A DNA stretch of 64,000 bases from an uncultured bacterium (GTDB lineage Bacteria > Omnitrophota > Omnitrophia > Omnitrophales > Abzuiibacteriaceae), in assembly GCA_964387845.1 (NCBI GenBank), contig CAYLXA010000001.1:224001-288000 (forward strand), given 5' to 3'. Position numbers and translations under genes: made by a program. Under the pieces are notes generated by a model. It made no database searches, was not told the DNA's origin, and worked only from the letters and a program-made list of their open reading frames with translations. Of this stretch, positions 5,521 through 53,560 are shown one piece after another (within the stretch, counting starts at the first letter, position 1; every line of letters begins with the position of its first letter).

Positions 5521-5565
5521 TGGTAGCGGGGGCCGGATTTGAACCGACGACCTTCAGGTTATGAG
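5521..5565 (-). repeat. Displaced 3' half of tRNA-Met, including an encoded CCA. This is the attR-side direct repeat of the island.
   Basis: The 42-nt stretch 5524..5565 is identical to 53424..53465, the 3' half of the intact tRNA-Met. It is preceded on the minus strand by CCA and sits next to the integrase. Confidence 0.8.
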
Positions 5566-5647: not shown

Positions 5648-6877
5648 CTAGTTCTTACAATTGTTTCTTATTTGTGCTGGTTTTGTTAGCACCATGTTAG
5701 CACGGCTTCCAAAAACTTCTTCATCCAATCTCTTCCCTACACCTTCATAAACAACCGGTAGCAAGTGTCCATATCGGTCAAGTGTTGTCTGAATAGAAGC
5801 ATGCCCTAATTGCGACTGAATAAGCTTAATATTTTCCCCCTGTGAAATCAAGAGGGTCGTGTAAGTATGTCTAAGGTCGTGAAACCGCACCCTTCTTAAT
5901 CCAGCCTTTTTGAGAGCACTAGAAAAATCCCGTTTCACCAAATTATCGGGATCCAGCGGATCGCCGTTTACATTGCAAAATATCAGATCGTGAAGTTTGG
6001 GAGGGAACAACTCACGGTATAAATTCAGTCCTTTCTCTAGAACTTTCGACATAACGATTGTTCTTATAGACCTTCTTGATTTTGGTGTAATAAATTTCCA
6101 ACGGTTACAATTCGTTTCTTTAATTTCGCGCCAACAGCGCCAATATAAACTCCTTCTCACGAAAATTATCTTCCGATTCCAGTCGATGTCTTTCCACTGG
6201 AGACCAAGCAACTCCCCTCTTCTCATCCCCGTCAGCACAGCTGTTAAAATGATGGTTCTTAGAGGTTCATCAGAGTTCTTTAAGAGAAGTCTGATATCTT
6301 GCGGTGTAAGAAAATCCATTTCTCTTTGCTCTTCTCGAATTCTGTCAATATCTGCCGCTGGATTTTCAAAGATATATTTCCATTTTCGAGCATGATTAAA
6401 CATGGTTTTTAAAAGGGACAGGTGGTGATTTACCGTCTTGGCGCTTCTTTTATCGTTTAACTCTGAAATGAATTTCTGAATATCATGCGGACGGATACCT
6501 AAAATAGCTCGGTCTCCCAACGCCGGAACAATGGTTGAATTAATCATTGACTCATAATTTCGGAATGTTGAGTCTTTAATAGAAACTCGAGCATAACTGT
6601 CTAGCCATTTCTTTGAAAATTCGGAAAACAAAATCTTGGGTGGCGCAAAGAAAGTTCCTTTATTAACGGATGAGAGTATTTCACTCAGCCTAGCCTCTGC
6701 GTCCTTTTTCTTCGGGCCAATGCGTTCCCACTTTTGCAAACGGCCTGACCTGAATATGATATAGTAGGCTGCTGATTGATGGCTGCATTTGCCGACACCG
6801 TCAGTCGCGTTTTTCCTGCATTTTCCACACCGCCATACGATACTACCTCTTGCCATGACTGCCTCCAGGATTAGCAA
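5648..6877 (-). CDS. int: Tyrosine-type site-specific integrase
   Basis: The C-terminal catalytic region HDLRHTYTTLLISQGENIKLIQSQLGHASIQTTLDRYGHL carries the R..H..R..Y motif. The gene is adjacent to the att repeat. The last ~10 codons read through a TGTTAGCAC repeat. Confidence 0.9.
   Translation of the reverse strand: MLILEAVMARGSIVWRCGKCRKNATDGVGKCSHQSAAYYIIFRSGRLQKWERIGPKKKDAEARLSEILSSVNKGTFFAPPKILFSEFSKKWLDSYARVSIKDSTFRNYESMINSTIVPALGDRAILGIRPHDIQKFISELNDKRSAKTVNHHLSLLKTMFNHARKWKYIFENPAADIDRIREEQREMDFLTPQDIRLLLKNSDEPLRTIILTAVLTGMRRGELLGLQWKDIDWNRKIIFVRRSLYWRCWREIKETNCNRWKFITPKSRRSIRTIVMSKVLEKGLNLYRELFPPKLHDLIFCNVNGDPLDPDNLVKRDFSSALKKAGLRRVRFHDLRHTYTTLLISQGENIKLIQSQLGHASIQTTLDRYGHLLPVVYEGVGKRLDEEVFGSRANMVLTKPAQIRNNCKN
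5685..5706. promoter_or_regulatory. Direct repeat TGTTAGCAC-N4-TGTTAGCAC. The same motif recurs at the other island end, so this is a candidate arm-type integrase-binding site.
   Basis: tgttagcaccatgttagcacgg here; tgttagcaccgtgttagcacgg at 53332..53353. Both lie just inside the att repeats. Confidence 0.4.
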
Positions 6878-9023: not shown

Positions 9024-10570
9024 ATAGTATTTATCCTTTTTCTGTGCATAGTTTTTGCTGAGTAATAAACAAGCGGAATAGAGAACAAAAGTGATGTGAA
9101 AATGGGGACTGCTGCCATATGGGGAAACGGTGTTCCTTGTGCTAGGTACCAAATACCCGTCAGTCCAATCACGGTCCCGGGCAACAACGCATCAATAGTT
9201 TCTGTCCACGTGATTTGCTCAAACGGATTTTTCTTCATGGGCTGCCAAATAAGCTTTTTAAGGGGGAGCGTCAGTATGTCAAATGCGGTGTAAACAAAAT
9301 TGCCCGCATAGATGAGCGTTGCAACAGTAATCTCATAGAGGAAGCGCTTAATATCATCAAATGTACGGATAAGGACTGCCTTGTGAAAGTAATTCACGAA
9401 AAGACTAAAGATCAAGATTCCGCAAAGCATCTCATTGGCCGGTTGCCCCAGGCATACGGTATTAACTTTAAATGAAATCAATTCACCGAATAGATAACTT
9501 TGCGATAAGAGGCCCAAGAGAAGCCAAAAGAGAAAAACCGGCTGCATGACGTAGCAGTAAATACCGTAAAAAGTCAAAAAACGGATAATAGGGCTGATGG
9601 ACTTCCTATATATAAGCGGAATCCCCTGCAAAGTGCCCTGCGCCCACCTAGATTCCCTGCGTCTTGATTCCAAATAATTAGAAGGCGTTTCATCATATGT
9701 CGTCACATCTGAAATAAACGCCACCCTTAATCCCAACTCATCGAGCAAGGCGGTGTCCCAGTTGTCATGTGAGAGCAGTCCTTTTGGCAGTTGAATTCTC
9801 TTAAACTGCTTTGCTCGTACGAGATGCTGATGGCCGAAAGAGATGGACTTCCTAAAGAGCGAAAAAAGAGTCGTGAAGTAAAGTCTCTGGCTTGATTCCG
9901 ACGCCAATCCTTCAAATTTGGCATAGTAAGTCTTAGCGTGCGCGGTTTTAATCAGCGTTTGAAATATGGCGATGTCCTCATTCTCCGGGTGTTGAGCCTT
10001 CCTCAGTAACTTGAGTACCGTTCTTGGAGGCACCATTGAATCGGCATCGCAGACATACAAATATTCATACACCGGATGACTGGATAGAAATTCGCTTAAA
10101 TTGCCTTGTTTCCGCTCAAAAGGTTCAGGCCGCCTTCTGTAAAACACTTTACGCCCAAGCGTTGCTTCGAGTTTTACTTGAAGTTGAAATTCTGATGGTT
10201 CATAGGCCGCGTCTGAATCACTCAGTATCCAAAAATCAACCCCGGGAAGCTGATTGTTCCTAAATGAATAAAGCATTCTTTCAAAGAGGCCGTCTTTCTC
10301 ATTTCGAATAAAATAGCAAAGCGCCGTTTTCGGAAAACGATTCACATACACTTCTTTCAGATGATGAGGCGGCGCAAACAAAAACATCAAAGCTAGGAGA
10401 AAAAGATAGATGACGTTAAGGAACAGGAAACCGAATCCGGCGATCCATCCGATTAAAATCAGACTCGACTGATATGCCGTAATCTGGTCCAAGACTAAAA
10501 ATACCGCGAGAGCATCCAGCCCGGCCAGCAACGCGATAAACCAATATTCCCGCAACCGCTTTTGTGTCAT
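9020..10570 (-). CDS. Processive family-2 glycosyltransferase, a membrane-embedded synthase of the OpgH/cellulose-synthase type
   Basis: Multi-TM N- and C-termini. It carries the DAD (DxD) motif, LLSHDNWDTALLDELG, and ESRRRESRWAQG (Q/RxxRW), as in OpgH/BcsA-type synthases. Confidence 0.7.
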   Translation of the reverse strand: MTQKRLREYWFIALLAGLDALAVFLVLDQITAYQSSLILIGWIAGFGFLFLNVIYLFLLALMFLFAPPHHLKEVYVNRFPKTALCYFIRNEKDGLFERMLYSFRNNQLPGVDFWILSDSDAAYEPSEFQLQVKLEATLGRKVFYRRRPEPFERKQGNLSEFLSSHPVYEYLYVCDADSMVPPRTVLKLLRKAQHPENEDIAIFQTLIKTAHAKTYYAKFEGLASESSQRLYFTTLFSLFRKSISFGHQHLVRAKQFKRIQLPKGLLSHDNWDTALLDELGLRVAFISDVTTYDETPSNYLESRRRESRWAQGTLQGIPLIYRKSISPIIRFLTFYGIYCYVMQPVFLFWLLLGLLSQSYLFGELISFKVNTVCLGQPANEMLCGILIFSLFVNYFHKAVLIRTFDDIKRFLYEITVATLIYAGNFVYTAFDILTLPLKKLIWQPMKKNPFEQITWTETIDALLPGTVIGLTGIWYLAQGTPFPHMAAVPIFTSLLFSIPLVYYSAKTMHRKRINTI

Positions 10571-19468: not shown

Positions 19469-19837
19469 TTAAAATTTATTTTTCAGTATCTGGATTCCCA
19501 CATATTTCTTGAGTTTGGTCGCAGCCCTGCGTATATGCATCCGTACGATCGCGCTATCTGAAATATTCAACTCTTCTGCTATTTCCAGATTGCTCAATCC
19601 TTGCAATGTTAATCTGACGCACTCACGCTCTCTCTTAGACAGCCCGGCACGACTTATGGCTCGTCTTGCCATTTCTTTCTGTTCATTTTCAATCAGCACC
19701 TCGACCGGCGAGGGCTGAGTGGCCACCTTCTTCAGAATTTCTTGATGCAAATCGGTTTTTGGGTCATTTTCGATCTTCTGAAAATCGACACCGATACGCA
19801 CCGTTCTCTTTGTTTTCCATTGAGTGTTGTTTTCCAT
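19469..19837 (-). CDS. Small sigma-70 region-4/LuxR-type HTH regulator
   Basis: RERECVRLTLQGLSNLEIAEELNISDSAIVRMHIRRAATKL is a sigma-70 r4 HTH. The gene is immediately upstream of the trb promoter motif. RBS GGAGGTGG. Confidence 0.6.
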   Translation of the reverse strand: MENNTQWKTKRTVRIGVDFQKIENDPKTDLHQEILKKVATQPSPVEVLIENEQKEMARRAISRAGLSKRERECVRLTLQGLSNLEIAEELNISDSAIVRMHIRRAATKLKKYVGIQILKNKF

Positions 19838-20324: not shown

Positions 20325-21362
20325 TTATACGAGTTGATATTGCCGGTTTTGAATTTCCAAGTTACTTTCCTCCTTTTCGTACTCCGTTAGATAATCAAAG
20401 CTGCAATCTTCACAGAATGAGCCGCCGGTTGCTTCGTCATAAAAGAGTTTGCCGGCTTCCACTTGGTCTTTACACAGTGAACATAGAAGCTTTGATTTTT
20501 CAGTGATGTTTGAATCTTCGAGAAATCCCATATACCGAAGCTCATCAAAGCTGTAGAGATAGGGATTCCCCGGCACTTTGAAGTCATCCTCTGTGAGCGA
20601 CTTGCGCATCGGGTTCTCCATCTCGCAAGGTATTTTTCGCATGGGACATTTTTCAGAAAGTTCTTCAACGTTAATTTTGTAAAGCACGTTGGATTGAATC
20701 TCGAGAAAATTGCCTTTCATGAAGTTTCTTGCAAGAGCGTATTGCAAGTGGATTTTCTCGCTCGACCAAAGCAAGGTTTTGAACTTAGGGACATAAACAG
20801 CGTAAAGCGTCCGTTCAACATTTCGGATGAGATAAAGCGTTTTCCTGTCATCCGTTTGCATGAATGCCAACGCAAAATCCCCAAACATCATCGAAAGCCG
20901 TTCAGCGACTTCTCTGTCGGAGGAGGCGCCATCCAAAACACGGAATACCGCCTCGCTATCGACGTCAGTTTTTTGCTCCGTGTTAAATCGTTTGAGAAGT
21001 TCAGTTCGATTTAGAAAATGCCCATTGTGCACACCGGCAAAATTCTCCGAGACAAACGGATGACAATTCCGGGATGAGATTGCTCCTACTGTGGCAAGCC
21101 GCGTATGGCCCAGAACAATGAGCGTATCCGCACCGATTTTCTTGATGACGTTACGCATCCGGACGGTGCGCAAAAGCTCGCTCGCTGGTCTGGCTTCCTT
21201 GAAAACGGTCATGCTCTCTTCTGCTGCTGTGAGCAATCCAGTTCCGTCTTGACCTCTTGTTTCATTGAGAAAAGCCAAATCCATCACTACGCCTTGAAGC
21301 CTCAGTTTCTCTGCTCCGCTTAAGGGCAGGGCCTCTCTCACAAATCCGAATATTCCACACAT
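20325..21362 (-). CDS. Class-II (Ntn-type) glutamine amidotransferase, YafJ-like, with a C-terminal zinc ribbon
   Basis: MCGIFGF gives the N-terminal nucleophile Cys2. The GATase-II fold continues through ...HTRLATVG...NCHPF. The C-terminus CSLCKD...CEDCS forms a CxxC-Xn-CxxC ribbon. Confidence 0.7.
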   Translation of the reverse strand: MCGIFGFVREALPLSGAEKLRLQGVVMDLAFLNETRGQDGTGLLTAAEESMTVFKEARPASELLRTVRMRNVIKKIGADTLIVLGHTRLATVGAISSRNCHPFVSENFAGVHNGHFLNRTELLKRFNTEQKTDVDSEAVFRVLDGASSDREVAERLSMMFGDFALAFMQTDDRKTLYLIRNVERTLYAVYVPKFKTLLWSSEKIHLQYALARNFMKGNFLEIQSNVLYKINVEELSEKCPMRKIPCEMENPMRKSLTEDDFKVPGNPYLYSFDELRYMGFLEDSNITEKSKLLCSLCKDQVEAGKLFYDEATGGSFCEDCSFDYLTEYEKEESNLEIQNRQYQLV

Positions 21363-21410
21363 GGTAAGTCTCCTTAGGTTTAATTGGGATTGAACTACTG
21401 AAGTGATAAA

Positions 21411-22685
21411 TTACTTTTGAACAGCTGCCAGAGTGGGAGCTGTTTCGAAGAACTTCTCGGGATGAAACTTTAAGATCCTTTGCTCGATGTAATTCCGAAT
21501 CTTCGTCCGGAATTTCAGCAGCACGCAGAATGCCTCAAACTGTTCTTTGAATGAAGCAAACTCCGAAAACCTGAAGTCTCTTTGACGCTTTGACTCGTCT
21601 ACGATCGCTTGGCAGATCACAATGAAATTTGTAATCTTAAGCGGGTTCGTTGTTCCCGAGTGATAGCGAAACTCCACTGAACGCCTGAAGAACCAAGAGT
21701 GAATGTTGACACCGAAGTATCTTGAGTTGTCAAACTTAGACTTCGTATCCACTCGCGCATTCCTTCTGCCGTACCAGAGCCGCTTTAAATCCATCTCATC
21801 TTTGACTTTGAACCGGAACCGTGATTTGGGAAATCGATTGAGCGGCACGGAGTAAGAACCGGAAAACCTTGATTCCGGAAGCATGGCATAAATCACCGGC
21901 TCAAACGCCACCGCAATCTTCAGCAATTTCTTGATGTTCTGAAAATCAAGATCCCGCCCATCAATGTGGACATGAAGACCGCAGCGCTTGTCCACGAAGT
22001 AATTCCAGTCAAGCAGCTTTTGAGTGAAAATGGCGATTTCGTTAAAGCCGTCATCGCCTTGAAGAATCGGGCTCGCAAATTCCATGCCCCAATCTCCCAG
22101 AGAGCCGTCATGCTGTTTGCTCCAAGCGCCCACTTCATCAACCGGAAGATGCATTTCCTCATCCCGAAGTATGGCTTCAATTTCCACGCCGTATTTTCTT
22201 TTTGATTTGCACAGTTTGAATTTAGCCGACGAAAATTCATGGTGCTGAATCAGCTCGCCGTTCTCCACCATGCGGTCGTAACAGTCTTCACAGTAAGTTG
22301 ACTCCCCTCTTCTAAAGCAGCGGGTAGAGTCAACCTCAGAACCGCAATCCTCGCAGAAGATTATGTTTTCAGATTCACAGGCGGAGCAGTAATAGACGTC
22401 CTGCAAATCTGAATAACGAGCGTCCTCTGACGCCGCATATTCCCCGCAGGCATTGCATTCCCTGTAATTGGCGTGAAAGCAGCTTTCACAAAGCCTCAAC
22501 CCTGCAACTGCAAAGGATTCGTCAAGCCACATGGGACGTTCGCATTTCCCGCACGGCTTCACACGTTTTTCAAAACACGCCGGGCAAAGATACCGGTCTT
22601 GATAGGTTTTAAACAAATCGACGTTTACGACAACACTGCAGGACGGGCATTTCTTTTCTTCTGCCCGTATTTCCAAAAGTTCCAT
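21411..22685 (-). CDS. Glutamine-synthetase/GCS2-like carboxylate-amine ligase (amidoligase) with an N-terminal array of four zinc ribbons
   Basis: Eight CxxC pairs lie in the first ~150 aa. They are followed by YGVEIEA, GMEFASP, GLHVHIDG and SVEFRYH, which resemble the E-x-E / H-x-H / EfR motifs of YbdK/GCS2-type ligases. Confidence 0.55.
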   Translation of the reverse strand: MELLEIRAEEKKCPSCSVVVNVDLFKTYQDRYLCPACFEKRVKPCGKCERPMWLDESFAVAGLRLCESCFHANYRECNACGEYAASEDARYSDLQDVYYCSACESENIIFCEDCGSEVDSTRCFRRGESTYCEDCYDRMVENGELIQHHEFSSAKFKLCKSKRKYGVEIEAILRDEEMHLPVDEVGAWSKQHDGSLGDWGMEFASPILQGDDGFNEIAIFTQKLLDWNYFVDKRCGLHVHIDGRDLDFQNIKKLLKIAVAFEPVIYAMLPESRFSGSYSVPLNRFPKSRFRFKVKDEMDLKRLWYGRRNARVDTKSKFDNSRYFGVNIHSWFFRRSVEFRYHSGTTNPLKITNFIVICQAIVDESKRQRDFRFSEFASFKEQFEAFCVLLKFRTKIRNYIEQRILKFHPEKFFETAPTLAAVQK

Positions 22686-23536: not shown

Positions 23537-25360
23537 TCATCGTTTGGCTCCTCTTATCTTTTCAAATTTATGCGCAGTATCACTGAGCGTTTGAAACTGA
23601 TCGCTTTCGTCTTGAACGATTTCAGGCTTTGCGCTTTCACGTTTCCAATGCTCTGTTGCCCGCTCACGTTCATCTTTAATCTTCATGTGTATCCATGTTA
23701 AATTAATGTCTGTTTCAGAGGACAGCCGCAGATAATCAATTTTAAAACTTGGATATTTCATGACAACAATCGCTTCGCCGCGTCCAAGTGAACGAACCAA
23801 GTCAGGGTCGATGCGAAACGTCTGCGCTTCTCTGACAGATCCTCGCCCTGTCATGTCTGTGCCGAGCATGCCGGATTCAGTCTGATACGTGGAAACAAAA
23901 GTTCTTCGGGAGCCTCCAATTTTTGAATATTTGTCAATCGAGAATGGGTCATCCTGACGCATGATGATTTTTACGTTTGTGTTCTCGAGGATTTGCTGCT
24001 GAAAGGTCATGCGCTTCGCCGCGAGGTCAGCCAGGCTTTGGTGAAGAAGCGTTACAGCAAGTTTGGCGCCGCGCGCTTTATTCATGAAATCGATGAAGTT
24101 CTCGTAGACAAAGCTTGAAAATTCATCCACGTACACAGGAAAAAAGTGCCGCTCACCCTCTTCCATCTGCGTTTGAATGTAGTTGGAAACTGTTTTAATG
24201 TCCTGCAGGATGAGACGCCCGAATCTTTTCGCCGTTTCTTCGTAGCCCTGCGTATTGAGTGCGAAATAGACAATTTTATTCTTCTGATAAACCTCTAGGA
24301 GGTCAATTTTTGATTCCTGAGAATCCGTCAGTCTTGAAAACTCTGATTTAGTTACGAGGCCTAAATCCGCGATGAATCCAGAGAGAAACTTGGTATTATC
24401 ATGAAACATGTCTTTCATGACTTCCAAGTCCTTCGACATCCGGATATCGTCAAGCTGCGCTATCAGCGCTCGTAATTGATTCTTGTCCGTTAAAAGCTCA
24501 TACAAATCCCGGAACCTGACTTTTCTGTTCAAACTCACCAAAGCTCTGAGCAATGTCAATGCGGCTTCTTCCGCCTTTTTTCTGTAAAATTCCTCGCGCC
24601 ATTCAGTAGAGCCGATCAGTTTGTCCTTAATCTCTGATGCGTTTCCGCGCAAGAGTGGGTTGTATGTGTCCGATATTTCCGGATGTGATAGCGAGAAGAA
24701 TAGAAAGTCATCTTTCCTGCCGTTAATTTGAACAAAGTAACGAATCTTCGCCAATAATTCCAAATCGCCCTTGGCGTCCACGACTATCGCCCCGCGGCCT
24801 CGCTCGATATCCCTTTTAAGCAGCGGAAGCATGACTGATTCTGTTTTACCAACGCCCGTTGAACCTACAACATGCGTATGCATGAGCCTCATGTCATCCG
24901 TTAAGTAACAGCCCTTGCCCGACCAATAACTCGTACCCAGATAAGCTTGATTCGCCTCAACCGCCGTTTTTTGCTTCGTGATTTCTCTCGAAGAAATTCT
25001 CTTCAATCTGCGTTTCTTATCGTCAGAGGATGTATCTTTCGAATTCTTCATTGCATATCCCGTCAACATGAAAAACGGCAATGTAATCAACAAATAGGCG
25101 CTGTAGAGGCACGTAGCCGCGACTCCCGCTTTCGTCCAAGGTCTCGCCTCAAACCTTTCAACAAACCCATTTAAATATTTAATTGACCAAATGGTCGTAA
25201 GCGCTGCAAGCAAGGTGCTCAAATAAGCTATTATCTTGACCCAAGAACTAGATTGATTCTTGACCCATCCGTCAAGCTTCTTGCCCAACCATACCGGAAC
25301 GGATACGAAAAGGAATTCAAACGTTGACCCCGTAAGGCCCTTTGACGGCTTCTCATTCAT
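23537..25360 (-). CDS. traG: Type IV coupling protein (VirD4/TraG family)
   Basis: Two N-terminal TM helices. Walker A VVGSTGVGKTE. A TraG/TrwB-type nucleotide-binding domain of 607 aa. Confidence 0.8.
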   Translation of the reverse strand: MNEKPSKGLTGSTFEFLFVSVPVWLGKKLDGWVKNQSSSWVKIIAYLSTLLAALTTIWSIKYLNGFVERFEARPWTKAGVAATCLYSAYLLITLPFFMLTGYAMKNSKDTSSDDKKRRLKRISSREITKQKTAVEANQAYLGTSYWSGKGCYLTDDMRLMHTHVVGSTGVGKTESVMLPLLKRDIERGRGAIVVDAKGDLELLAKIRYFVQINGRKDDFLFFSLSHPEISDTYNPLLRGNASEIKDKLIGSTEWREEFYRKKAEEAALTLLRALVSLNRKVRFRDLYELLTDKNQLRALIAQLDDIRMSKDLEVMKDMFHDNTKFLSGFIADLGLVTKSEFSRLTDSQESKIDLLEVYQKNKIVYFALNTQGYEETAKRFGRLILQDIKTVSNYIQTQMEEGERHFFPVYVDEFSSFVYENFIDFMNKARGAKLAVTLLHQSLADLAAKRMTFQQQILENTNVKIIMRQDDPFSIDKYSKIGGSRRTFVSTYQTESGMLGTDMTGRGSVREAQTFRIDPDLVRSLGRGEAIVVMKYPSFKIDYLRLSSETDINLTWIHMKIKDERERATEHWKRESAKPEIVQDESDQFQTLSDTAHKFEKIRGAKR

Positions 25361-26088
25361 CCCAAGATGGAGCGTAGAGGAATTCTGGATGCCTTATTCA
25401 TCAGCTCCGCATCTTTCTTTTTCAGTAAGAGCTCATCATAGAGCACAAAGCAAAGCTTATTCTGAGGAACTTCAATGTCCAATAGCCAGCTCTTCACCAT
25501 GTGCCAAGACAGGATATAAATCACCAGGGTGAAATCATTTAGACGGCTGTATTTCGCAAACCTTGTCTCATACCTTTCCCGTTCCCTGAAGGAATTTTCA
25601 AGTTCAATCGCAATTCTCTGCCCGCTTACTTCGATGACCGCGTCAGGAAAAAATTCCCGGTCGTGCTCTTCTTTTCTGACAACCCGTTCGCTCAGCCATT
25701 TAACACCCTTAAAGTCCCGAAACAGGCACCGCAACGTCGCCAACTTGAGCGTATGCTCTATCGTATATTGGTTGATATCCCCGATTTCTCCAAAGCCACG
25801 GTCCAGCCCTTTCTCTTTCAAGACATCTATCCCCTCAGCCGTCAGCAGAAAAAGTCTCACTTTTTCTGATTTCGCCTTCTGGACATCCAAAGTCCTAATA
25901 AATCCTGCATCAACAAGCTTGCTCAAACGCTGCCTTGCAGTTCCTGACCTCACTTCGCTGTCAGGCCAAAATGCCGAGTAAATTTGATTCGCCATCATGT
26001 ACTTTTGTTCATTCAAGTACGTGAATATCTCGATATCACGCTCTGTAATGACGACACGCCGCAATTTATCCAATAAGTTTTCAGCCAC
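25357..26088 (-). CDS. Replication-relaxation (Replic_Relax) family protein, the candidate relaxase/mobilisation protein
   Basis: N-terminal wHTH (IFTYLNEQKYMMANQIYSAF...RLSKLVDAGFI). C-terminal FFPDAVIEV...IAIELENS matches the PDa...lEvD core of the Replic_Relax family. It overlaps traG by 4 nt. Confidence 0.5.
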   Translation of the reverse strand: MAENLLDKLRRVVITERDIEIFTYLNEQKYMMANQIYSAFWPDSEVRSGTARQRLSKLVDAGFIRTLDVQKAKSEKVRLFLLTAEGIDVLKEKGLDRGFGEIGDINQYTIEHTLKLATLRCLFRDFKGVKWLSERVVRKEEHDREFFPDAVIEVSGQRIAIELENSFRERERYETRFAKYSRLNDFTLVIYILSWHMVKSWLLDIEVPQNKLCFVLYDELLLKKKDAELMNKASRIPLRSILG

Positions 26089-26141
26089 AGATTCACTCCC
26101 TCGCCATGGAAAGCCGGTTGGGCCCTTCCATGGCTTGCGAA

Positions 26142-26549
26142 TTACCGAATGGCCAGATCGGCCATTTTCCTCGCTAGATTTCTTGTTTCACTGACCGTAT
26201 TGCCAATGCTCCTTAAGTCATCCCTCAAGTTCAGCTGCCTATCCTTAAACCGATTTGGCGTCTTTGGCGCTTGAACAGGCTTCATCTGATAAACTTTTGG
26301 GGCTACCGTCAAACGAGCCTCCCTTGCCGCTGGTTCAATCTTACTCACACCCGCCTCAGCGTCTTTTGTCCATTGCAATTTCATGACCTGTTTTACGAGA
26401 TAAGCAGGCAGAGTCAGCCCTATTGCCGTTGACCCGATGATCATCCAGCAAGAAATACTGATACTTACAAGCTTAACTCCTAGTTTTCTCAGCTTGAGAT
26501 CCGTACGATCAACCGTTTCACTGACTTGCTTTTCAATTTCTTTCAACAT
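26142..26549 (-). CDS. Hypothetical membrane protein, first gene of the traG operon
   Basis: 135 aa with one TM segment, preceded by the conserved promoter motif. Confidence 0.35.
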   Translation of the reverse strand: MLKEIEKQVSETVDRTDLKLRKLGVKLVSISISCWMIIGSTAIGLTLPAYLVKQVMKLQWTKDAEAGVSKIEPAAREARLTVAPKVYQMKPVQAPKTPNRFKDRQLNLRDDLRSIGNTVSETRNLARKMADLAIR

Positions 26550-26638
26550 TGTGGAACTCCTTATGTGGAAGCTTTATCGCTTCAAGTCTTTCATCCAAGT
26601 TTATGCTTGGCGGTTTCTGTTTATTTTTCGAAATGTTC

Positions 26639-26688
26639 TCTCATAGATGTTGTGCAAAAACAGCCATTTCGTAACAAGCAAATTCAAT
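26639..26688 (-). promoter_or_regulatory. Conserved ~50-bp promoter/operator element, copy 2 (upstream of the 26549 traG/relaxase operon)
   Basis: ctcatagatgttgtgcaaaaacAGCcatttcgtaacaagcaaattcaatt; see 19413..19462. Confidence 0.55.
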
Positions 26689-26766
26689 TAACAGATGGAA
26701 AATATTTTTTTATGTCTATTAATGAACTCAATTCATTCAACTCACCACTTCCTCACGAGCACCTGT

Positions 26767-26863
26767 CCAAAAACCCTATCTCTCTACACACACCACACCC
26801 ACTGACAAGTACCCCTCGATTACGGATGGGAGAGATAGGGTTTTTGGACGGGGACTCTCCCCG
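26767..26863. repeat. Inverted repeat with 18-bp perfect arms, CCAAAAACCCTATCTCTC...GAGAGATAGGGTTTTTGG, around a 45-nt loop. A 6-bp hairpin follows. Candidate oriT or structured RNA.
   Basis: The arms are read directly from the sequence at 26767..26784 and 26830..26847. It lies in the 450-bp non-coding gap between the STAND gene and the mobilisation operon. Confidence 0.5.
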
Positions 26864-27004
26864 ACGCTTGTGCGAAGTGAGGAAGTTACGTAGAATGCTT
26901 CAGTTACGAAGGAAGCGATGAATTCAAGTTCCCCTAAGTTACAATTTTTTGCGGGGATGAATGCGGAAATTTAAAATTAAACAAACATGTTCTTACGGTA
27001 ATGC

Positions 27005-30000
27005 TTATATAGTAGCCTCTGCGTCTTGGGTAAGCTCTTGTTTCATTTGTTCATCGCCGTAATTTCCAACATCTAAATAAAATTGATGCGCAGGGTGTTC
27101 TACACTAAAAAGCTTTGCGGTTTCCTTACCGCGAGTTGCTAGATTTTGGCTCTTTGCTGAGACTTCTCCAAATGACCTTGATGATCCCCCGCTAATTGCT
27201 ATTCCAAATAGATTGGATTTTACACGTTTAAGGCATTCAGCAGATTTATTTGAAGCCAATAGAATCAACTCTCCAACAAAAGCGTGCTCGTTAAATATAA
27301 AATTATCCTCCGCGTCTCTGACTAAAAGAGATATGCCCACAAGTTTATTTACAGTAGGATTTTTAAACCACTCTTTTAATATAGCTAAAGATTTAGCCGA
27401 ATACCCATCTGAAACTGCCCGAAAAAGCTTTTCAAGCCAAAAACGATCCGCTGTTTTTGCTAAAGACAGATTTCGAACTACTCTTACGTGCTTCTCATAT
27501 CCCATCATCGTGGAAATACCTTTATAAGCAGTGTCAAATCCTAAATACGGAAGGGGCGTATAATTTTCTCTTCTTGTAAGTTTTTTGACGGGCTTAGTTG
27601 ATTGACTATATAAATAGCGTGCAACTAAAAACTCAACGGCTGCCTGCGGATATTTTCTACAAACAAAAGAAAGGAATTCCTCAACATGGAAATCCTGCCG
27701 TTCAAAGATGTTAAATTTAACCAATTTGCTTAATAAGGATTTTAATTCGGTTTCATTCAGCTTAGAAAATGGAATGCCATAGTTCTCATTATAAATTTCA
27801 AAAAATTGGTCGAGCACTATTCCTCTTTCTTTCAAATCAATGCCCACAGCAAGTTTCTTAGCAGCTTCCGCATCAACCTGCCCTAGTTTTTGAAGTGCCT
27901 GAAGCGCCGTGCCAAAAATATTGTCGTTGCTATGTTTGAGTAAATACCCTACATTCTGGATATCCTCTTTAAAGGGTTTTTCTAAAAGGCCGCCCCAAGC
28001 GTAGGCATGAGCAATGTTGTGGTAGACGATTTGCCTTTTTGTTTTTAGTCCTTGTTTAATTAACGCCCTACTGATTTCTCGATAACTTTCCAATCCATTC
28101 AAGGGCCATAAAATTGATGAGCAAAATTTTTCCACTTCACCATTCTTTCTAGCGAGGCAAAGCTTAAATAATTTTACGGCGAAATCGGGATTGAGTTTTG
28201 TAATTTGAGAAAGAAGGTAATTGGGGTTAGCTGATCTTTTGTAGTGATTTAAATCGCGTAATCTTTTTTCTAAAACCATTAACAACTGACGAGGATTCTT
28301 AGCCTGTTTCAATAAGATTTCAGCTACCCCGCTCACCTCTTTTGCCGTTATTTCAGTTTGTTTACTAAAATCATGCTTTTTATTAACAAATTCTTCGAAA
28401 TCGTGAGCTATCGCACGGACAAGACGATATTCGAAATTCTCCGGTATAAGCTCATAAATACTTTTGATTTTTTTCTTTAATTCGTCGTGCCTTCCAAACA
28501 AACTAAACCAACGAAGTTGCGATCTTACGGCAAGTCGGAAACAGGACGACTTAATGATCTTTAATTTTCTTTTAACCAATTCGAGAATTGATAACTGTTC
28601 TGGCAAATAAACATCTTGCTCTGACTTTCCAGCGCGACGACCGTATAGTCCATGAGAATAGCTCAATGCTTTTAAGAGAGTATAAAGAGCTTCCATTAAC
28701 ATCTTTGGCGGGGCATCCGGTTGGATGAAGGAGCCAAGTAATTCTATAGTGCTATTACGCAAGTTTTTCACGGCTTCGTAATTTAAAGGCAAAGACCTGA
28801 AGGACATGCTTCCTTCATCGTACGAAGACTCTTCAATCTCTTTCGCGAGGAATTCTTCCAAAATATTCAAAGGTGTATAACGGTAAATAAAGTTATTTTT
28901 CTTGGCCACGGTTTCTTTAAGGAAGGCAAAAACTTTCTTATTGTAAACAAGGGGCTTTCCGACTTGATATTCAGCCAACTCTTTTAAGATTCTAACGGAA
29001 TGCTGCGGATGAGGATTTAATTCTCTTTCGTCAGTTTTTGCAATTTCCCAGAGAATTTTACAGGCAGGAGTGACATATTCTAAATTAAAGGCTATCTTTT
29101 TTAATATAGATGGAATTTTTTCCAATACATGACGATGCTTCCAGAAATCTCCATATAATTGCTTCTTAGGATTAGGGCGTGCGGGCGCTTTAATGGCGTG
29201 GTTTACTAGCTCTAATGCTTTATCAGGTTGATAATACGCCGACTCTTCGATTTCTTCCAAGATTTTAGTTCGCTCATAATGATCAGCTTTTCTAAAATCT
29301 TCGTGGATTTTTTTCCAAACGGAACTTAAAAGATCTACATTCAAGGCATTTTTTCTTGCTCGCCACTCTACTTCAGAAATATTTTTAAGAATGTTTTTTG
29401 CTAGAGTTGATTTAAATTTCTCATACACATGATCAGCAAATTTAGTGCTTGAGCCATCTTTGGCAATACAGGCTGAGTGAAGAATATGATCACTCAATAA
29501 ATCAGGAGCAAGCCTTGCCAACGCTCCGCGTCTTATCAAAACCCCTTTTTCTTCCATCGCATCAAATGCTTTGACAATATCAAAAACAGGACACGCAAGA
29601 AGTTCGGACAATTGTTTCCGTAACTCCTCGTTATTCAATCTCACTGGGGCAAGCACAGAAAGATATTGAAGAAGCTTATCTGCTAATCCCGGATTGGAGT
29701 AATTTTCTCCTTTAAGTTCATCTATAAATTTATCTAAAACGGTTCTTTGAAATTCATCGCTTTTGCTTATTTTGTATGGATGCAGCTTTTTATCGCGAAT
29801 TAATTTGCTGGCAATTACCGCTGCCAGGGGGCAGTCTCTGGTCATAGCCACGATATATTTAATCAGGCCAGAATCATGTCCGACAATGCTTTCAACGATT
29901 TCTTCTAAATCAACCTTTTTCAAATCACTTAACTCCGGAGGCCGTTCGATTTCGTTTAACAAAAGATTTGTATGCGCCAATACACTATCGACAAATTCTT

Positions 30001-30919
30001 TTCCGCGAGGGCGAATAGACAAAATGATTTTGATTTCGTCTTTCCGTGGAGAGTTGAAAATTGATAAAAGGTTGGGAAGACTCGTATATCTATGAGCATC
30101 ATCAATAACCAAAATGCTGCGGCCAGCCGGAAGAAGAGAAATTGTTTCAGTAGTTAGAACAAAGTTTTCACGAACAAATAAGACCCTAGCCCACTCACTC
30201 ACACCCACTTCTTGTTTTTTAGAAAATTCTAATAATAATTTACTTTTACCAATGCCGCCTCTTCCCGTAAGAACGATTACCTTCTTATCCGAGTTTGCAA
30301 AAGCTTCTAGACTAGACAATTCTGAGCTACGACCGACAAGATTAATCTCATGAGAAAATAAAACATCGCGCCGTAAGAGCGTACGAAAAAAATCTTGATA
30401 CGAAACAAGCGGCCCCTTTTTTCTATCTTCAAACTCCTTATAGGCGCTTATTGCGTTTAAAAATTCCTCACGAAGCTGATCAGACTCTGAAAATCTCTTA
30501 AATGTTCGCTCTTGTGCAACCTTATCAAAAAAAGCTTGGTGTTTCTTTTTTACTTCCAGGTCTTCGTCTTTAGGCTGCCATTCTTTTCCATTCGGAGTTT
30601 TTAAAAAAACAAAAACTTTTAAGCCTAAGCGGGTAGCTCGCTCATATTCTATTTGAGTATAAGAAATGCCAGCTTTGGGATTTACGGTTCCATACAGAGG
30701 CCCGATTAACAAGACAACGCAATCAGATCCCTCTAGATGCCGAAGACACGTTTCTTCAGGCGTATCAGGACTTGAAGGAAACCATTCCATTGCAGAAAAT
30801 TCTGTACCTTGTGCCGGAGTTAAACCTAAGAGGTTATTCCGTTCATCATTTAGACCAGCTTGTGGTGAACTTAAGAAGATTTTGAACTTTTTGAGGTCAG
30901 CCATTGAAAACTCTTCCAA
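27005..30919 (-). CDS. STAND-class P-loop NTPase. It has a DUF4062-like N-terminal domain and a ~900-aa C-terminal helical-repeat region, an architecture like the Avs/bNACHT antiphage sensors.
   Basis: N-terminal KIFLSSPQAGLNDERNNL matches the DUF4062-type start. Walker A is VLTGRGGIGKSKLL and Walker B is ILVIDDAH. The C-terminal ~900 aa have long alpha-helical repeats. The protein is 1304 aa. Confidence 0.6.
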   Translation of the reverse strand: MEEFSMADLKKFKIFLSSPQAGLNDERNNLLGLTPAQGTEFSAMEWFPSSPDTPEETCLRHLEGSDCVVLLIGPLYGTVNPKAGISYTQIEYERATRLGLKVFVFLKTPNGKEWQPKDEDLEVKKKHQAFFDKVAQERTFKRFSESDQLREEFLNAISAYKEFEDRKKGPLVSYQDFFRTLLRRDVLFSHEINLVGRSSELSSLEAFANSDKKVIVLTGRGGIGKSKLLLEFSKKQEVGVSEWARVLFVRENFVLTTETISLLPAGRSILVIDDAHRYTSLPNLLSIFNSPRKDEIKIILSIRPRGKEFVDSVLAHTNLLLNEIERPPELSDLKKVDLEEIVESIVGHDSGLIKYIVAMTRDCPLAAVIASKLIRDKKLHPYKISKSDEFQRTVLDKFIDELKGENYSNPGLADKLLQYLSVLAPVRLNNEELRKQLSELLACPVFDIVKAFDAMEEKGVLIRRGALARLAPDLLSDHILHSACIAKDGSSTKFADHVYEKFKSTLAKNILKNISEVEWRARKNALNVDLLSSVWKKIHEDFRKADHYERTKILEEIEESAYYQPDKALELVNHAIKAPARPNPKKQLYGDFWKHRHVLEKIPSILKKIAFNLEYVTPACKILWEIAKTDERELNPHPQHSVRILKELAEYQVGKPLVYNKKVFAFLKETVAKKNNFIYRYTPLNILEEFLAKEIEESSYDEGSMSFRSLPLNYEAVKNLRNSTIELLGSFIQPDAPPKMLMEALYTLLKALSYSHGLYGRRAGKSEQDVYLPEQLSILELVKRKLKIIKSSCFRLAVRSQLRWFSLFGRHDELKKKIKSIYELIPENFEYRLVRAIAHDFEEFVNKKHDFSKQTEITAKEVSGVAEILLKQAKNPRQLLMVLEKRLRDLNHYKRSANPNYLLSQITKLNPDFAVKLFKLCLARKNGEVEKFCSSILWPLNGLESYREISRALIKQGLKTKRQIVYHNIAHAYAWGGLLEKPFKEDIQNVGYLLKHSNDNIFGTALQALQKLGQVDAEAAKKLAVGIDLKERGIVLDQFFEIYNENYGIPFSKLNETELKSLLSKLVKFNIFERQDFHVEEFLSFVCRKYPQAAVEFLVARYLYSQSTKPVKKLTRRENYTPLPYLGFDTAYKGISTMMGYEKHVRVVRNLSLAKTADRFWLEKLFRAVSDGYSAKSLAILKEWFKNPTVNKLVGISLLVRDAEDNFIFNEHAFVGELILLASNKSAECLKRVKSNLFGIAISGGSSRSFGEVSAKSQNLATRGKETAKLFSVEHPAHQFYLDVGNYGDEQMKQELTQDAEATI

Positions 30920-31071: not shown

Positions 31072-31428
31072 TCACGCTGAGGAATTATCAAGTGAAATCG
31101 ATAAGAGCCAATGGCCATTGTGCTGATTTTTGATTTTTTTAAGATTTTCATACCGTTTAAACAAATCATCCGGCAAACGTTCAAGGGCGTTTTCGATATG
31201 CTTATTGACAGTCTTTGGCTTAATTTTCATGGCTTGAGCGATTTCCTTCCGCTTCATGAAAAGCGAGAGAATAAAAGACGCCTTCTGGCTTGCCGTCAGC
31301 GAACGGAATAAGACCGGAGAACGGGGATTAATCTTTTCAGAGAACACGCGAGAGTTTGATTGGTCTCGCTCCTGCTCTCTGACAAGTTGTTCTAATTCCG
31401 GTGAAAACTTTTTAAATTGTTTTGGCAT
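31072..31428 (-). CDS. Small sigma-70 region-4-type HTH regulator
   Basis: LTASQKASFILSLFMKRKEIAQAMKIKPKTVNKHIENALERL is an ECF sigma r4-like HTH. Confidence 0.5.
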   Translation of the reverse strand: MPKQFKKFSPELEQLVREQERDQSNSRVFSEKINPRSPVLFRSLTASQKASFILSLFMKRKEIAQAMKIKPKTVNKHIENALERLPDDLFKRYENLKKIKNQHNGHWLLSISLDNSSA

Positions 31429-33979: not shown

Positions 33980-36900
33980 CTAGTAATTATTTGTCGGATC
34001 GTGGTCAATATAATCTCTCGAAAATTCGCTGCCTTGATTTACTAACTTTGCAATGCCTTCTAGAAATCGGCCTATCTTAGTTTTGAATTGCTCCATCCTA
34101 ATTTGACGAGTAGGCTCGTTTGCTGGCCTTGGCCTAAATCTATCCATAGATTTTATGGCTTTTTGTTTAACTTTTTGATTTGCCCCTGGTTTTTCCCGCG
34201 AACTACGTTTTTGAAATTGTTTTTTAGGACTTGATCGACTTGTTTTTGCTTCTCTAAGCAAAATATCGGGAGCGGAAGCTACCTTTGCCGCAGAAATGGT
34301 TAGCGCGATCATGCCATCTGTTACGACGGGATAGTTACCCGCCGTCGGCGGCCCTCCGGGTAGCCCGGATCCCTCTCCTGGCAACTTAATGTTATCTACA
34401 AGCTTATCTGCTATCGCTTGTTTGTCAATGAATCGATCAATTGACTCTGAAAAATGTATTTCATTAGTCAAGCTTGCGCTTGTCATAGTTGCAGCGCTTA
34501 TTTGCGTAGCTGCGAGTGCCGCAGATGCAGATGCAATGCCGACAGCTTCTGAAATAGTAAAGGCGGAGCCTGATGCGGTGGTTAAAAGTGCGCTGCTTGC
34601 TTCTACATATACGTCGCCGCCTGCTAGCACAGCTTCACTGATAGTTATGTTGCCTGCGCCCGTACTCAACGCACCAGCTGCCGCTTGTAACGTTTGTAAA
34701 ATAACTGTGCCTGCCATTTGTATAATGGTAATAGCGGTTGTAGCTATAGTAATGGCTAACTTTACGACTGCGGCAATAATTGCAACTATAATCCACCAAA
34801 AATTACCGCTAGGATCGACAAATCTTATCGGATTATTCCTTGCGTAAGCATAACGATTGAAACTTTGCGGATCCTCGGGGCTTTGAATGAATGAATCGGG
34901 AGTAATAAAGCGACCTATTTGAGGATCGTAGTACCGGGCGCCAGCATAAATGAGATCAGACTCAAGATCTTCTTCATGGCCAGTATAAGTTCTATTAACA
35001 ATATCCGTTCCTTCCCGACGTTTTACTTCGCCATACGGTAAATACTCCATCAAAAGCGTTTGCATACCAGCTTCATTAGAAACAACATTGGTCGAACTTA
35101 AATGATCTTGATGGTAGAATCTTAAGTGCGGGATGCCTTGACTGGAAATTTCTAGATCGCTCACTCGTACTTCGCCCAGATAAAATCCCTTACGAGTCAA
35201 CAAATTATTAGGCCCATATTGAACTTCATAGTCCTTTCCTAAATAATAAGTGATTTGATTGTCGGCACTTTTCTTAACTCTTTGGCCCGTAGTATCGTAA
35301 ACATAAGAACCAATAAGTATAGGTTGATTGTCAGCAGGATTGCTTTGTATCGTGGCACTGATACTCTGAGAATTTGTAACATAAATCTTGTATGTTTTGC
35401 CAGTTTCCAATGTTGTGATGTCTGTAAATTCAGGGTCAATCACGAAGTGATCCCATGCTTGTGCGGTTGAATCCCAATACGAAATCTGGTCATAATCCGG
35501 ACCGATATTTAATCCAGAAAATATTTCCTGAATATCACTCATATATTGGCCGGACGTTGTGTTAAAAGGCTGGAAAGGGAGTGTGAAGGTATTCCATCCT
35601 GGATTAAATTGAAATGTATGATCTTGAGGTTCGCTAGATGCCCCCCTTGTCAGTTGCACAAGCTGGTTCTCAAAATCATACGTCAACAATTCATTATTCC
35701 GCTGGATCATATTGCCATTGGCATCATAGGAAAACGTGATTGTTTCCGATGAGTCTACGTATTGCGTAACTGCTTGGGGATGCAACGGGTCATTGTATTG
35801 AAGAGTGGCATTATTTTTTTGAGTCATGTTTCCAATTGCGTTGTATTGGAAATCATGAATTCCGTAACCTTGCGGATTAGAGGCTTGGATTAATCGATCA
35901 AGGTCGTCATATTGGAAGCTCTGTGAATTGGTGTTGATCGAATCCTGAATGGAAAGCACATTACCTTCGTTATCAAAGGAATATCCAAAATCCTGTAGTA
36001 ATTGATTTTGACCGCCTCGGGTTAATAGATGCGTTAATCGAAGTGATTGCGGATTATAGGTGTAATCTGTTGTGACACCATTCCCATATTGAATCTTTAT
36101 GACCTGCCCGGAGGGGTTATAGTCGACATTCGAAATGATTGACATTTGAGTTTGATCGGTGCGTATAAGCGCCATTATTTCCGTCTCGCCCATGCCGTTA
36201 TAAGTTATATTGAGAACATCGCCATCTGGATATTCAAGGGATGAGACTCTGTCTAGCGCATCATAAACTCGTGTAAAGACGTAATCATTTCCGTCATCAA
36301 GGGATTTTTTATCCTGAATGACACGACCTAGTGGGTCATAACGGAAAACCTGAATGCCGGAGTTGTCAGCAACTTTGACCAATTTTCCGATGGAATAATT
36401 AGTGCCAGGCAATCCGCCGCACGTATCAGATGGACATGAATCATACACGTAATCAACGTGGTTTCCGTCAGGGAATGTTTTCTTTGTGATCCGATTCAAC
36501 GGATCATATGTAAATTCTATTCGCGATCCACGCGCATCAATCTGAGCTGTTAAGTTATCGTTCGAGTCATACTCATATTGCCAGAATCCAGTATTAGGAT
36601 CATTGACGCTCCTTTTACGGCCTAATGTATCGTAAATGATGATCGTTTCATGTCCATAATGGTCGATAGTTTTCGTCAAACGACTTTGCGCATCGTATTC
36701 ATACTGCGTTGTATATATTTCTGCGCCATTAAACTCCTGCACTTCAACAATATTGCCAAACGCATCCTGCGAGATTCTTTTTTGATGATTATTTCGATCG
36801 ATTTCGGTCCTCACAAAGTCATCATAAATTATTCTGGAAAATGTTAAATCTGGATAGGTGGTTTTGATGATGCGACCCATCGGGTCGTAATCGTACGTGA

Positions 36901-53416: not shown

Positions 53417-53423
53417 ACGAAAC

Positions 53424-53497
<74 letters not shown>

Positions 53498-53560
53498 ATA
53501 AAAGATAAAAACGAAGATGTATTATATAAAGCGAATGACAGATTTGCAAGCGCGGCTAAT

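Follow-up and report, generated by a model that had tools for sequence, protein, structure and literature searches.

A nested inverted repeat upstream of a MOB_C relaxase operon is a putative origin of transfer in an integrative and conjugative element of an uncultured Omnitrophales bacterium

Background

MOB_C is the least understood family of relaxases. Its members are PD-(D/E)XK, restriction-endonuclease-like enzymes (PMC3424549, PMC12857230), and no covalent intermediate with DNA has been seen for them (PMC12857230, PMC6736028). The prototypes are TraX of pAD1 and MobC of CloDF13 (PMC12857230, PMC6736028), and only two or three MOB_C origins of transfer (oriT) have been mapped, those of pAD1/pAM373 and of CloDF13 (PMC12857230, PMC6736028). 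Here we describe a nested inverted repeat of 140 bp that is probably the core of an oriT of this type, as judged by comparison of related sequences. It lies in an integrative and conjugative element (ICE) on contig CAYLXA010000001.1 of an uncultured Omnitrophales bacterium (assembly GCA_964387845.1). The stretch of this contig that was analysed, positions 224,001 to 288,000 of the forward strand, is 64,000 nucleotides long and is referred to below as the window; coordinates without another source are positions within it.

The relaxase of pAD1, TraX, has a DEE metal-binding motif and an essential tyrosine, Y181 (PMC6736028), and it binds five direct repeats located 70-120 bp from the nick site (nic) (PMC12857230). 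In the pAD1-like plasmid pTEF1, two kinds of repeat occupy the gap between the coupling-protein gene and the gene for the TraX homologue: five direct repeats resembling TATGCCTAA and, after them, a nested repeat of about 145 bp overall. The outer arms of this repeat are 18-19 bp long (CGTCCTCGGCGCTTGGTAT / ATACCAAGCGCCGAGGAC), and its inner arms, TGCAAAATTCCTGACCATTTTAGCG / CGCTAAAATGGTCAGGAATTTTGCA, are perfect over 25 bp and enclose a 27-nt loop. The oriT2 of pAD1 is reportedly an inverted repeat of about 140 bp that lies beside short direct repeats and contains the nick.

The origin of CloDF13 is also built from two stems, one inside the other. Its outer stem, of 14 bp, lies upstream of mobB; the arms (9650-9663 / 9770-9783) are 106 nt apart, and between them is the inner stem, GACCACCC/GGGTGGTC. 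Nicking has been mapped to 5'-GGGTG/GTCGGG-3' (Núñez & de la Cruz 2001, quoted in PMC5935869). This is the complement of sense CCCGAC/CACCC, so that nic is on the strand opposite the mob sense strand, 3 bp inside the base of the inner stem.

Structure of the element in the window

The element occupies part of a 455-bp non-coding gap (26550-27004) between a STAND/DUF4062 gene and an open reading frame (ORF) of 135 amino acids. All genes around it are on the - strand, and it lies about 200 bp upstream of an operon that encodes a predicted small membrane protein, a relaxase and a coupling protein. The original prediction, made from the letters of the window, had described an 18-bp perfect inverted repeat with a 45-nt spacer in this gap, accompanied by a second small hairpin, and had offered it as a candidate oriT. 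The repeat is real: the 18-mer CCAAAAACCCTATCTCTC at 26767-26784 has its exact reverse complement at 26830-26847, with 45 nt between them. Perfect pairing runs 2 bp further, so that the arms grow to 20 bp (GTCCAAAAACCCTATCTCTC at 26765-26784 and GAGAGATAGGGTTTTTGGAC at 26830-26849). The extent first assigned to the element was too small, since a perfect 10-bp outer stem, ACTTCCTCAC/GTGAGGAAGT (26747-26756 / 26877-26886), surrounds both the inner repeat and the small hairpin. The whole is a nested double inverted repeat with a total span of 140 bp (26747-26886), and conserved boxes flank it. Its parts are as follows; sense refers to the orientation of the mob genes, the - strand.

26747-26886, - strand: whole nested inverted repeat, proposed oriT core (from pairing, folding and the covariance model)
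26877-26886, - strand: outer stem, sense 5' arm, ACTTCCTCAC, with an imperfect continuation to 26870 as ACTTCCTCACTTCGCAC; family consensus ACTTCCTCACCTCGCAG
26849-26863, - strand: small hairpin CGGGGActcTCCCCG, of which only the TCCCCG box (sense, 26854-26849) is invariant
26830-26849, - strand: inner stem, sense 5' arm (GTCCAAAAACCCTATCTCTC on the - strand), perfect 20-bp pairing; holds the predicted nick, 26846/26847, on the + strand
26785-26829, - strand: inner-stem loop, 45 nt, whose sense 5' edge (26825-26829) is a conserved CCAT(Y); the remaining sequence varies among loci
26765-26784, - strand: inner stem, sense 3' arm (the left arm of the original prediction plus GT), from pairing and covariation
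26747-26756, - strand: outer stem, sense 3' arm, GTGAGGAAGT, with GTGCTC ahead of it, up to 26762; family consensus CTGCTCGGTGAGGAAGT
26903-26911, - strand: conserved box, sense cTTCGTAAC (TTTCRTAAC in the family consensus), some 20 nt to the 5' side of the outer stem; candidate protein-binding site, from the alignment
26930-26957, - strand: TCCCC(GC) box at 26953-26957 with an inverted GGGGA at 26930-26934; candidate relaxase-binding repeats, by analogy with the direct repeats of pAD1
26550-26675, - strand: conserved leader of the mob operon, presumed promoter region, with the palindromes CCAAGcataaaCTTGG (26595-26610) and GAAGCgataaaGCTTC (26568-26583)

Chance is excluded as the origin of the inverted repeat. 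A search for the 18-mer with up to three mismatches found two copies, where 0.03 were expected from shuffles of the window, and by our own arithmetic a perfect 18-bp repeat with a spacer of at most 100 nt is expected about 1e-4 times in 64 kb. When folded as single-stranded DNA, a 161-nt segment reaches -35.7 kcal/mol on the + strand (z = -7.7 against dinucleotide shuffles) and -36.1 kcal/mol on the - strand (z = -5.9), and no shuffle was as stable on either strand. A covariance model built from 13 homologous loci matches the window once only, on the - strand at 26742-26891, with a score of 115 bits.

Conservation and covariation among related loci

The relaxase family is rare, forming 17 clusters in a database of 5.8 billion proteins. 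Twelve related loci carried enough upstream DNA for comparison (L004-L006, L008-L012, L014 and L017-L019), one of them from a metagenome-assembled genome of Candidatus Omnitrophota; their relaxases are 44-80% identical to that of the window. The nested architecture is found at the matching place, upstream of the relaxase operon, in all twelve. The original prediction had stated that absence of the element from related ICEs would weaken it, and the opposite is seen. Across the loci, 279-389 nt separate the start of the outer stem from the operon's first gene. The genes on the other side of the element vary from locus to locus, indicating that the element belongs with the mob operon and not with the STAND gene.

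The two stems are conserved in different ways. In the outer stem the sequence itself is kept (ACTTCCTCACCTCGCAG ... CTGCTCGGTGAGGAAGT). The inner stem is perfectly or near-perfectly paired over 17-21 bp in each locus and is variable in sequence, as illustrated by the arms CCAAAAACCCTATCTCTC, CCAACTGACTAATCTCCC, CCAATTGCCTAACCCTCC, GTCAAAATGTCCCAA, CCAAAAGACTAAGTCTCT and GTCCATCTGACCTCCCC from individual loci. The loop ranges in length from 21 to 48 nt and is likewise variable, save for the CCAT(Y) at its sense 5' edge.

To quantify the pairing we used an alignment of 13 sequences (A2) and a structure that we wrote down for it. Paired cells make up 95.9% of this alignment, as compared with 37-48% when the partner columns are slid. 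Double changes occur in 21 of the 35 pairs and amount to 74 compensatory cells; the covariation score, 0.427, was reached by none of 500 shuffles, which averaged 0.143 ± 0.016. These comparative data indicate that the pairing is under selection. The outer helix is paired in 96.7% of cells and has five pairs with double changes. In the inner helix, compensatory double changes are found in 16 of the 20 pairs and one-sided (wobble) changes in none. The covariance model made from A2 finds exactly one copy of the element per locus.

Short unpaired boxes are conserved as well. A TCCCCG box at the base of the inner stem (alignment columns 38-43) is invariant across the loci. It forms part of the second hairpin of the original prediction, which is present at 26849-26863 in the window; in some loci the hairpin is absent or replaced, and conservation is confined to the TCCCCG part. 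Counted as TCCCC, this box stands at +31 to +33 from the outer stem in 12 of the 13 loci. On the other side, TCCCC is placed at the fixed offsets -84 and -71 across the 13 loci, and GGGGA, its inverted form, at -48; in most loci this last copy pairs with the one at -71 as a CCCCGC...GCGGGG hairpin. The density of the TCCCC motif is 14.7 per kb in the region of the element versus 1.9 per kb in the flanks, a roughly 8-fold difference, and the boxes are dispersed, unlike the tandem repeats of pTEF1. By analogy with the described systems, the TCCCC boxes at 26953-26957 and 26850-26854 are candidate relaxase-binding sites; the TTCGTAAC box is a candidate protein-binding site.

Pairing at the level of DNA or RNA

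The pattern of substitution in the inner helix bears on the kind of nucleic acid that is paired. Of its 254 cells in the alignment, 242 are Watson-Crick pairs and 12 are mismatches, all of them pyrimidine-pyrimidine or C-A and none G-T. RNA helices that undergo compensatory change normally pass through G-U. The wobble-free inner helix thus favours pairing of DNA over pairing of RNA, as do arms that are perfect in nearly all loci, the absence of an Rfam match and the position of the best-conserved leader and candidate promoter block downstream of the element. Such pairing may arise when supercoiled DNA extrudes a cruciform, or when the transferred strand folds back into a hairpin.

The alternative is a function as structured RNA. 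Folded into the nested hairpin, the transcribed element would control expression of the transfer genes, whether as an attenuator or leader of the mob operon or as a small regulatory RNA; a small RNA had also been raised as a second choice in the original prediction. The strong fold on both strands and its covariation would suit an RNA. The outer helix contains three G-T (G-U-type) cells, all on the sense strand, which are compatible with RNA and are too few to decide between the two. The leader downstream is highly conserved and has small hairpins of its own, and there is a precedent, in that a small RNA encoded at the oriT region of SGI1 has been described (PMC9299015). Against this stand several observations in addition to the lack of wobble pairs. 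Perfect stems of 18-21 bp are atypical of regulatory RNAs. No Rfam family matches the element at E < 0.9; a scan of 26000-27600 with E values up to 10 returned only spurious microRNA and small nucleolar RNA matches, the best being to eukaryotic microRNA models with 17.8 bits (gathering thresholds 72-81, E about 3). A scan of the gap for sigma-70 promoters found none, so that by the sigma-70 consensus no promoter-like site lies upstream of the element, and the best-conserved candidate promoter and leader block is situated downstream of it. We consider a structured RNA improbable, and it fares worse than an oriT.

In the gap, only a small palindrome of the leader, on the + strand, resembled a terminator. 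The sigma-54 and Bacteroidota-type promoter consensus sequences were compared with the conserved block by eye and were rejected because the spacing does not fit.

The adjacent relaxase

Sequence comparisons place the relaxase of the window in the MOB_C family, in agreement with the original prediction that the operon encodes a relaxase. The protein matches PF13814 (Replic_Relax) with 30.4 bits, above the cutoff of 25.3; this is the Pfam model of MobC/MOB_C relaxases (PMC5357655). It also matches NF041423, the NCBIfam model "MobC family replication-relaxation protein" (E = 2e-15), with 56.6 bits, which is below the subfamily cutoff of 200 and therefore suggests a distant branch of MOB_C. A search of plasmids with tblastn gave only three weak matches, to proteins of the MobC and replication-relaxation families. 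The alignment to the TraX homologue of pTEF1 covers 181 residues at 23% identity, and in it D149, E162, E164 and Y173 of the window align with D152, E170, E172 and Y181 of TraX. Among 16 homologues the first three residues are invariant and Y173 is at least 90% conserved.

An AlphaFold (AF2) model of the relaxase, with a confidence (pLDDT) of 89.4, is consistent with a winged helix-turn-helix (wHTH) fold joined to a PD-(D/E)XK-like domain. Foldseek matches to this model were weak (E about 2e-3) and included the Bax1 nuclease, Cdn1/Can2, subunits of the nickase BspD6I and winged-helix proteins of the PadR type. A search of PDB sequences with the relaxase profile found none at E values up to 1.

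A putative origin of transfer

The element is present in all twelve relatives, its pairing appears to be selected, a MOB_C relaxase is encoded beside it, and the known origins of the family are built alike. Together these lines of evidence support, and do not prove, the oriT proposed in the original prediction, and we regard the nested repeat as probably the core of the origin of this ICE.

The comparison with CloDF13 also yields a prediction of where the DNA would be cut. The CCCGNCCA motif holds the mapped CloDF13 nick, and the window has CCCGNCCA at the matching position. The CloDF13 nic lies within sense-strand CCCGACCA, and at the equivalent structural place the window has CCCGTCCA; in the window the sense sequence at this position reads CCCCGTC/CAAAA, and the family consensus is TCCCCG(T/C)CCA. 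Because the CloDF13 nic is 3 bp into the equivalent stem and the motif is shared, the nick in the window would fall between 26846 and 26847 of the + strand, 5'-TTTTG/GACGGGG-3'. This exact position is tentative, and we hold it to be less likely than not.

In the mechanism that we propose, the wHTH domain would position the relaxase on the TCCCC(G) boxes at offsets -84, -71 and +32 from the outer stem, and the nested repeat would be extruded or melted into its hairpin form. The nuclease domain would then cut the strand that pairs with the mob sense strand, at a point 3 bp inside the base of the inner stem. Measured from the predicted nick, the boxes at -84 and -71 lie about 107-120 bp away, a distance comparable to the 70-120 bp of pAD1. 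The + strand would be transferred 5' to 3', such that the STAND side enters the recipient first and the mob and type IV secretion genes enter last, as is the usual arrangement in conjugative systems. In the recipient, the perfect hairpin in the transferred single strand may aid termination and rejoining.

A more specific version of this mechanism would make branched DNA, in place of a linear sequence, the substrate. The nested repeat would form a cruciform or three-way junction, at which the PD-(D/E)XK domain of the relaxase would recognise the structure and nick the inner stem at its base. Every round of transfer would expose the hairpin as single-stranded DNA, and correction of one arm against the other at that stage would preserve perfect arms without wobble intermediates. 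We think this version rather unlikely. If true, it would explain how MOB_C enzymes, in which a covalent DNA intermediate has yet to be seen, select and re-seal their site.

Several points weigh against an oriT or limit what can be said of it. The covariance model finds no copy in CloDF13 or pTEF1 (L015, L016), and blastn of the gap against 72,556 plasmids gave no match. The link to the pAD1 and CloDF13 origins is thus one of architecture, without alignable homology, and the analogy depends on that architecture and a 7-base motif; the predicted nick in turn depends on the short motif CCCG(N)CCA. Compensatory change is also expected from inverted sites of a dimeric protein or from gene conversion between the arms, and covariation by itself therefore does not prove that a hairpin forms. 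A transcript may also cover the element.

Other explanations

Inverted sites for a dimeric protein are the basis of a second alternative, in which the repeat serves as double-stranded DNA. It would be an operator or insulator that takes no part in nicking: a dimeric regulator bound to the inner arms would repress or insulate the mob operon. The strict symmetry of the arms and their co-ordinated changes suit a dimeric protein that co-evolves in specificity with its site, and regulators with GerE/LuxR-type helix-turn-helix domains are encoded nearby (19469-19837 and 31072-31428). However, close relatives differ from one another at 16 of the 20 arm positions and yet have invariant unpaired boxes on the flanks, the reverse of what is expected of a recognition sequence. 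A spacer that ranges from 21 to 48 nt would shift the helical phase between the half-sites, the enclosing second stem is left without an explanation, and the matching architecture is a proven oriT in MOB_C plasmids. We rank an operator below a structured RNA in probability.

A long, stable hairpin of single-stranded DNA whose covariation is exclusively Watson-Crick, located in or beside the leading region, is also what would be expected of a single-strand initiation site or promoter. Such a site would form its hairpin on the transferred strand, only in the recipient, for complementary-strand priming or early transcription, and the nick would be elsewhere. The duplex part of the element nevertheless has no conserved boxes resembling -35 and -10, and the inner stem is variable. 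The similar-looking repeats of pAD1 and CloDF13 contain or abut the nick, and no other conserved candidate for a nick region was seen. As the sole function of the element this is lower again in our ranking; a dual role, as origin and single-strand site, may apply.

A selfish repeat, such as a miniature inverted-repeat transposable element (MITE), has next to no probability, as has a chance palindrome, and both are effectively refuted by the comparative data: the arms do resemble terminal inverted repeats, and there are breaks in independent Logan contigs about 75 bp away, but the repeat is single-copy in the window and in each locus, it keeps a constant place relative to the relaxase operon in elements with relaxases of only 44-64% identity, the expectation for a chance palindrome is the 1e-4 given above, and a scan of viral contigs for the 16-mer of the outer arm gave 20 matches, which we attribute to chance since the partner arm was present in none.

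An intrinsic terminator of the STAND gene, also mentioned in the original prediction, was rejected because the loop is 45 nt long, the element is kept beside unrelated upstream genes and, as had been remarked at the outset, no T-tract follows the repeat on either strand. Similarly, an ORF of 131 amino acids on the + strand (26526-26921) that overlaps the element is not considered a gene; indels among the loci are not multiples of three, and the region is conserved as paired DNA and not as codons.

The surrounding element

The surroundings agree with those first described, namely a gap of about 450 bp between a STAND gene and an operon for a relaxase and a coupling protein, within an ICE. A 42-bp exact direct repeat (5524-5565 / 53424-53465) corresponds to the 3' part of a tRNA-Met gene. 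Together with the adjacent integrase it sets the limits of the ICE: the region is a 47.9-kb ICE inserted in the tRNA-Met gene, with the 42-bp repeats as attL and attR. Beyond the coupling protein, downstream, are genes for a VirB2/TrbC pilin, a VirB4-like ATPase and proteins resembling VirB9/CagX and VirB10/TrbI. The principal genes are listed here.

5648-6877, - strand: tyrosine integrase
23537-25360, - strand: type IV coupling protein, VirD4/TraD-like, 607 amino acids
25357-26088, - strand: MOB_C (Replic_Relax) relaxase, 243 amino acids, predicted N-terminal wHTH and PD-(D/E)XK-like nuclease domain (from PF13814, NF041423 and alignment)
26142-26549, - strand: ORF of 135 amino acids that opens the operon; a membrane segment is predicted, and no family matches
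27005-30919, - strand: DUF4062/STAND NTPase, 1304 amino acids, upstream of the element
53423-53498, - strand: tRNA-Met gene

In 12 of the 13 related loci readable there, the operon likewise opens with an ORF in the position of the 135-residue one. The roughly 125 nt before it are better conserved than the proteins, and the leader palindromes CCAAGcataaaCTTGG and GAAGCgataaaGCTTC are nearly invariant across the 13 loci. Each palindrome has 5-bp arms and a 6-nt spacer, with a few G-T and compensatory variants; neither has an Rfam match, and they could be operator sites or hairpins of a leader RNA. At the junction between the 135-residue ORF and the relaxase gene, a 9-bp hairpin, GCCATGGAA/TTCCATGGC (26103-26111 / 26126-26134, - strand), lies just before the ribosome-binding site of the relaxase. 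Hairpins of other sequence occupy the same place in L002, L006, L008, L009 and L011-L013, and they may be attenuators or have a part in translational coupling.

A gene for a small PC4-like protein (PF02229; 23142-23369, - strand) comes shortly after that for the coupling protein and is conserved in this ICE family, with relatives in L002 (3316-3546), L018 (5113-5388 and 6392-6619) and L019 (8077-8313). The PC4 family is known for binding single-stranded DNA, and a helper function for the transferred strand is possible. As part of the cargo of the ICE, the transfer operon also contains an amidoligase and glutamine-amidotransferase pair (20325-22685, - strand), which is found again in L002. The cargo further includes the DUF4062-STAND NTPase (27005-30919, - strand), directly on the predicted leading side of the origin, and an RHS/Tc-toxin-like protein of 2070 amino acids (33980-40192, - strand).

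Independent Logan assemblies from different samples all stop at the start of the leader block, about 75 bp from the element (position 1 of L001, L002 and L003; 26671 in the window), and the contig of L020 begins, at its position 1, within the inner stem. The shared contig ends may reflect a drop in coverage at the hairpin and an AT-rich tract, or a mosaic or recombination boundary.

Comparison with known origins of transfer

The putative oriT can be set beside four kinds of known sequence. The origins used by HUH relaxases (RP4, R388, F) resemble it in that they are non-coding, adjoin the relaxase operon, have an inverted repeat near nic and are oriented such that the transfer genes enter last. 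In HUH origins the repeat is short and imperfect, with arms of about 6-19 bp and a small loop, and nic lies a few nucleotides 3' of it in single-stranded DNA bound by the HUH tyrosine enzyme. The window differs in having a PD-(D/E)XK enzyme, a nested repeat of 140 bp and a nick that is predicted to fall inside the stem. With single-strand promoters and initiation sites (Frpo/ssi) it shares a long hairpin close to where the leading region begins, which would form on the strand being transferred. Those hairpins rebuild conserved -35 and -10 boxes in their stems, whereas the stem in the window is free to vary in sequence and only its pairing is kept.

The resemblance to CloDF13 is closer. The relaxase of the window is nearest to the MobC branch (NF041423, E = 2e-15), and in both systems a nested repeat lies upstream of the mob operon. 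The inner stem of CloDF13 has 8 bp with imperfect extensions, in contrast to the perfect 20 bp of the window, and CloDF13 is a small mobilisable plasmid, whereas the window holds a self-transmissible ICE. The CloDF13 repeat GACCACCC/GGGTGGTC is also carried by the Acinetobacter MOB_C plasmid pAYTCM-4. In this plasmid (from Acinetobacter johnsonii; L041) a 12-bp repeat with the CloDF13 nic sequence, GCACGACCACCC/GGGTGGTCGTGC (1372-1383 / 1451-1462), is located about 660 bp upstream of the operon for the coupling protein and mobC and is interleaved with a 10-bp repeat (1339-1348 / 1443-1452); it is probably the plasmid's unannotated oriT.

In the case of pAD1 oriT2 and pAM373, genes for a MOB_C relaxase and a coupling protein adjoin the origin, as they do in the window. 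The pAD1 type, as read in pTEF1, shares with the window a nested repeat of about 140-145 bp composed of an outer stem, an asymmetric internal loop, a long perfect inner stem and a loop of 27-45 nt, and in both there are short repeated boxes on the side away from the relaxase gene. The pAD1 origin is located between the coupling-protein gene and traX, whereas that of the window would lie upstream of the whole operon. Likewise, pAD1 has five tandem repeats of about 12 bp, while the TCCCC boxes of the window are dispersed and one pair of them forms a hairpin. Finally, pAD1 is a pheromone plasmid of Bacillota and the window holds an ICE with a type IV secretion system of the Gram-negative type.

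If the assignment holds, it adds to the family a distant, environmentally distributed MOB_C clade whose origin can be recognised by comparison alone, and it supplies a concrete, testable prediction of the nick. A large nested repeat whose inner stem has a CCCG(N)CCA box at its base would then be common to MOB_C systems that have no detectable sequence similarity, and in the clade described here it is accompanied by covariation that is exclusively Watson-Crick. These features could provide a practical signature for locating MOB_C origins in genomes. The element in the window is best filed as a MOB_C-type oriT of a previously undescribed clade, alongside those of pAD1 and CloDF13, and not as a new kind of element.

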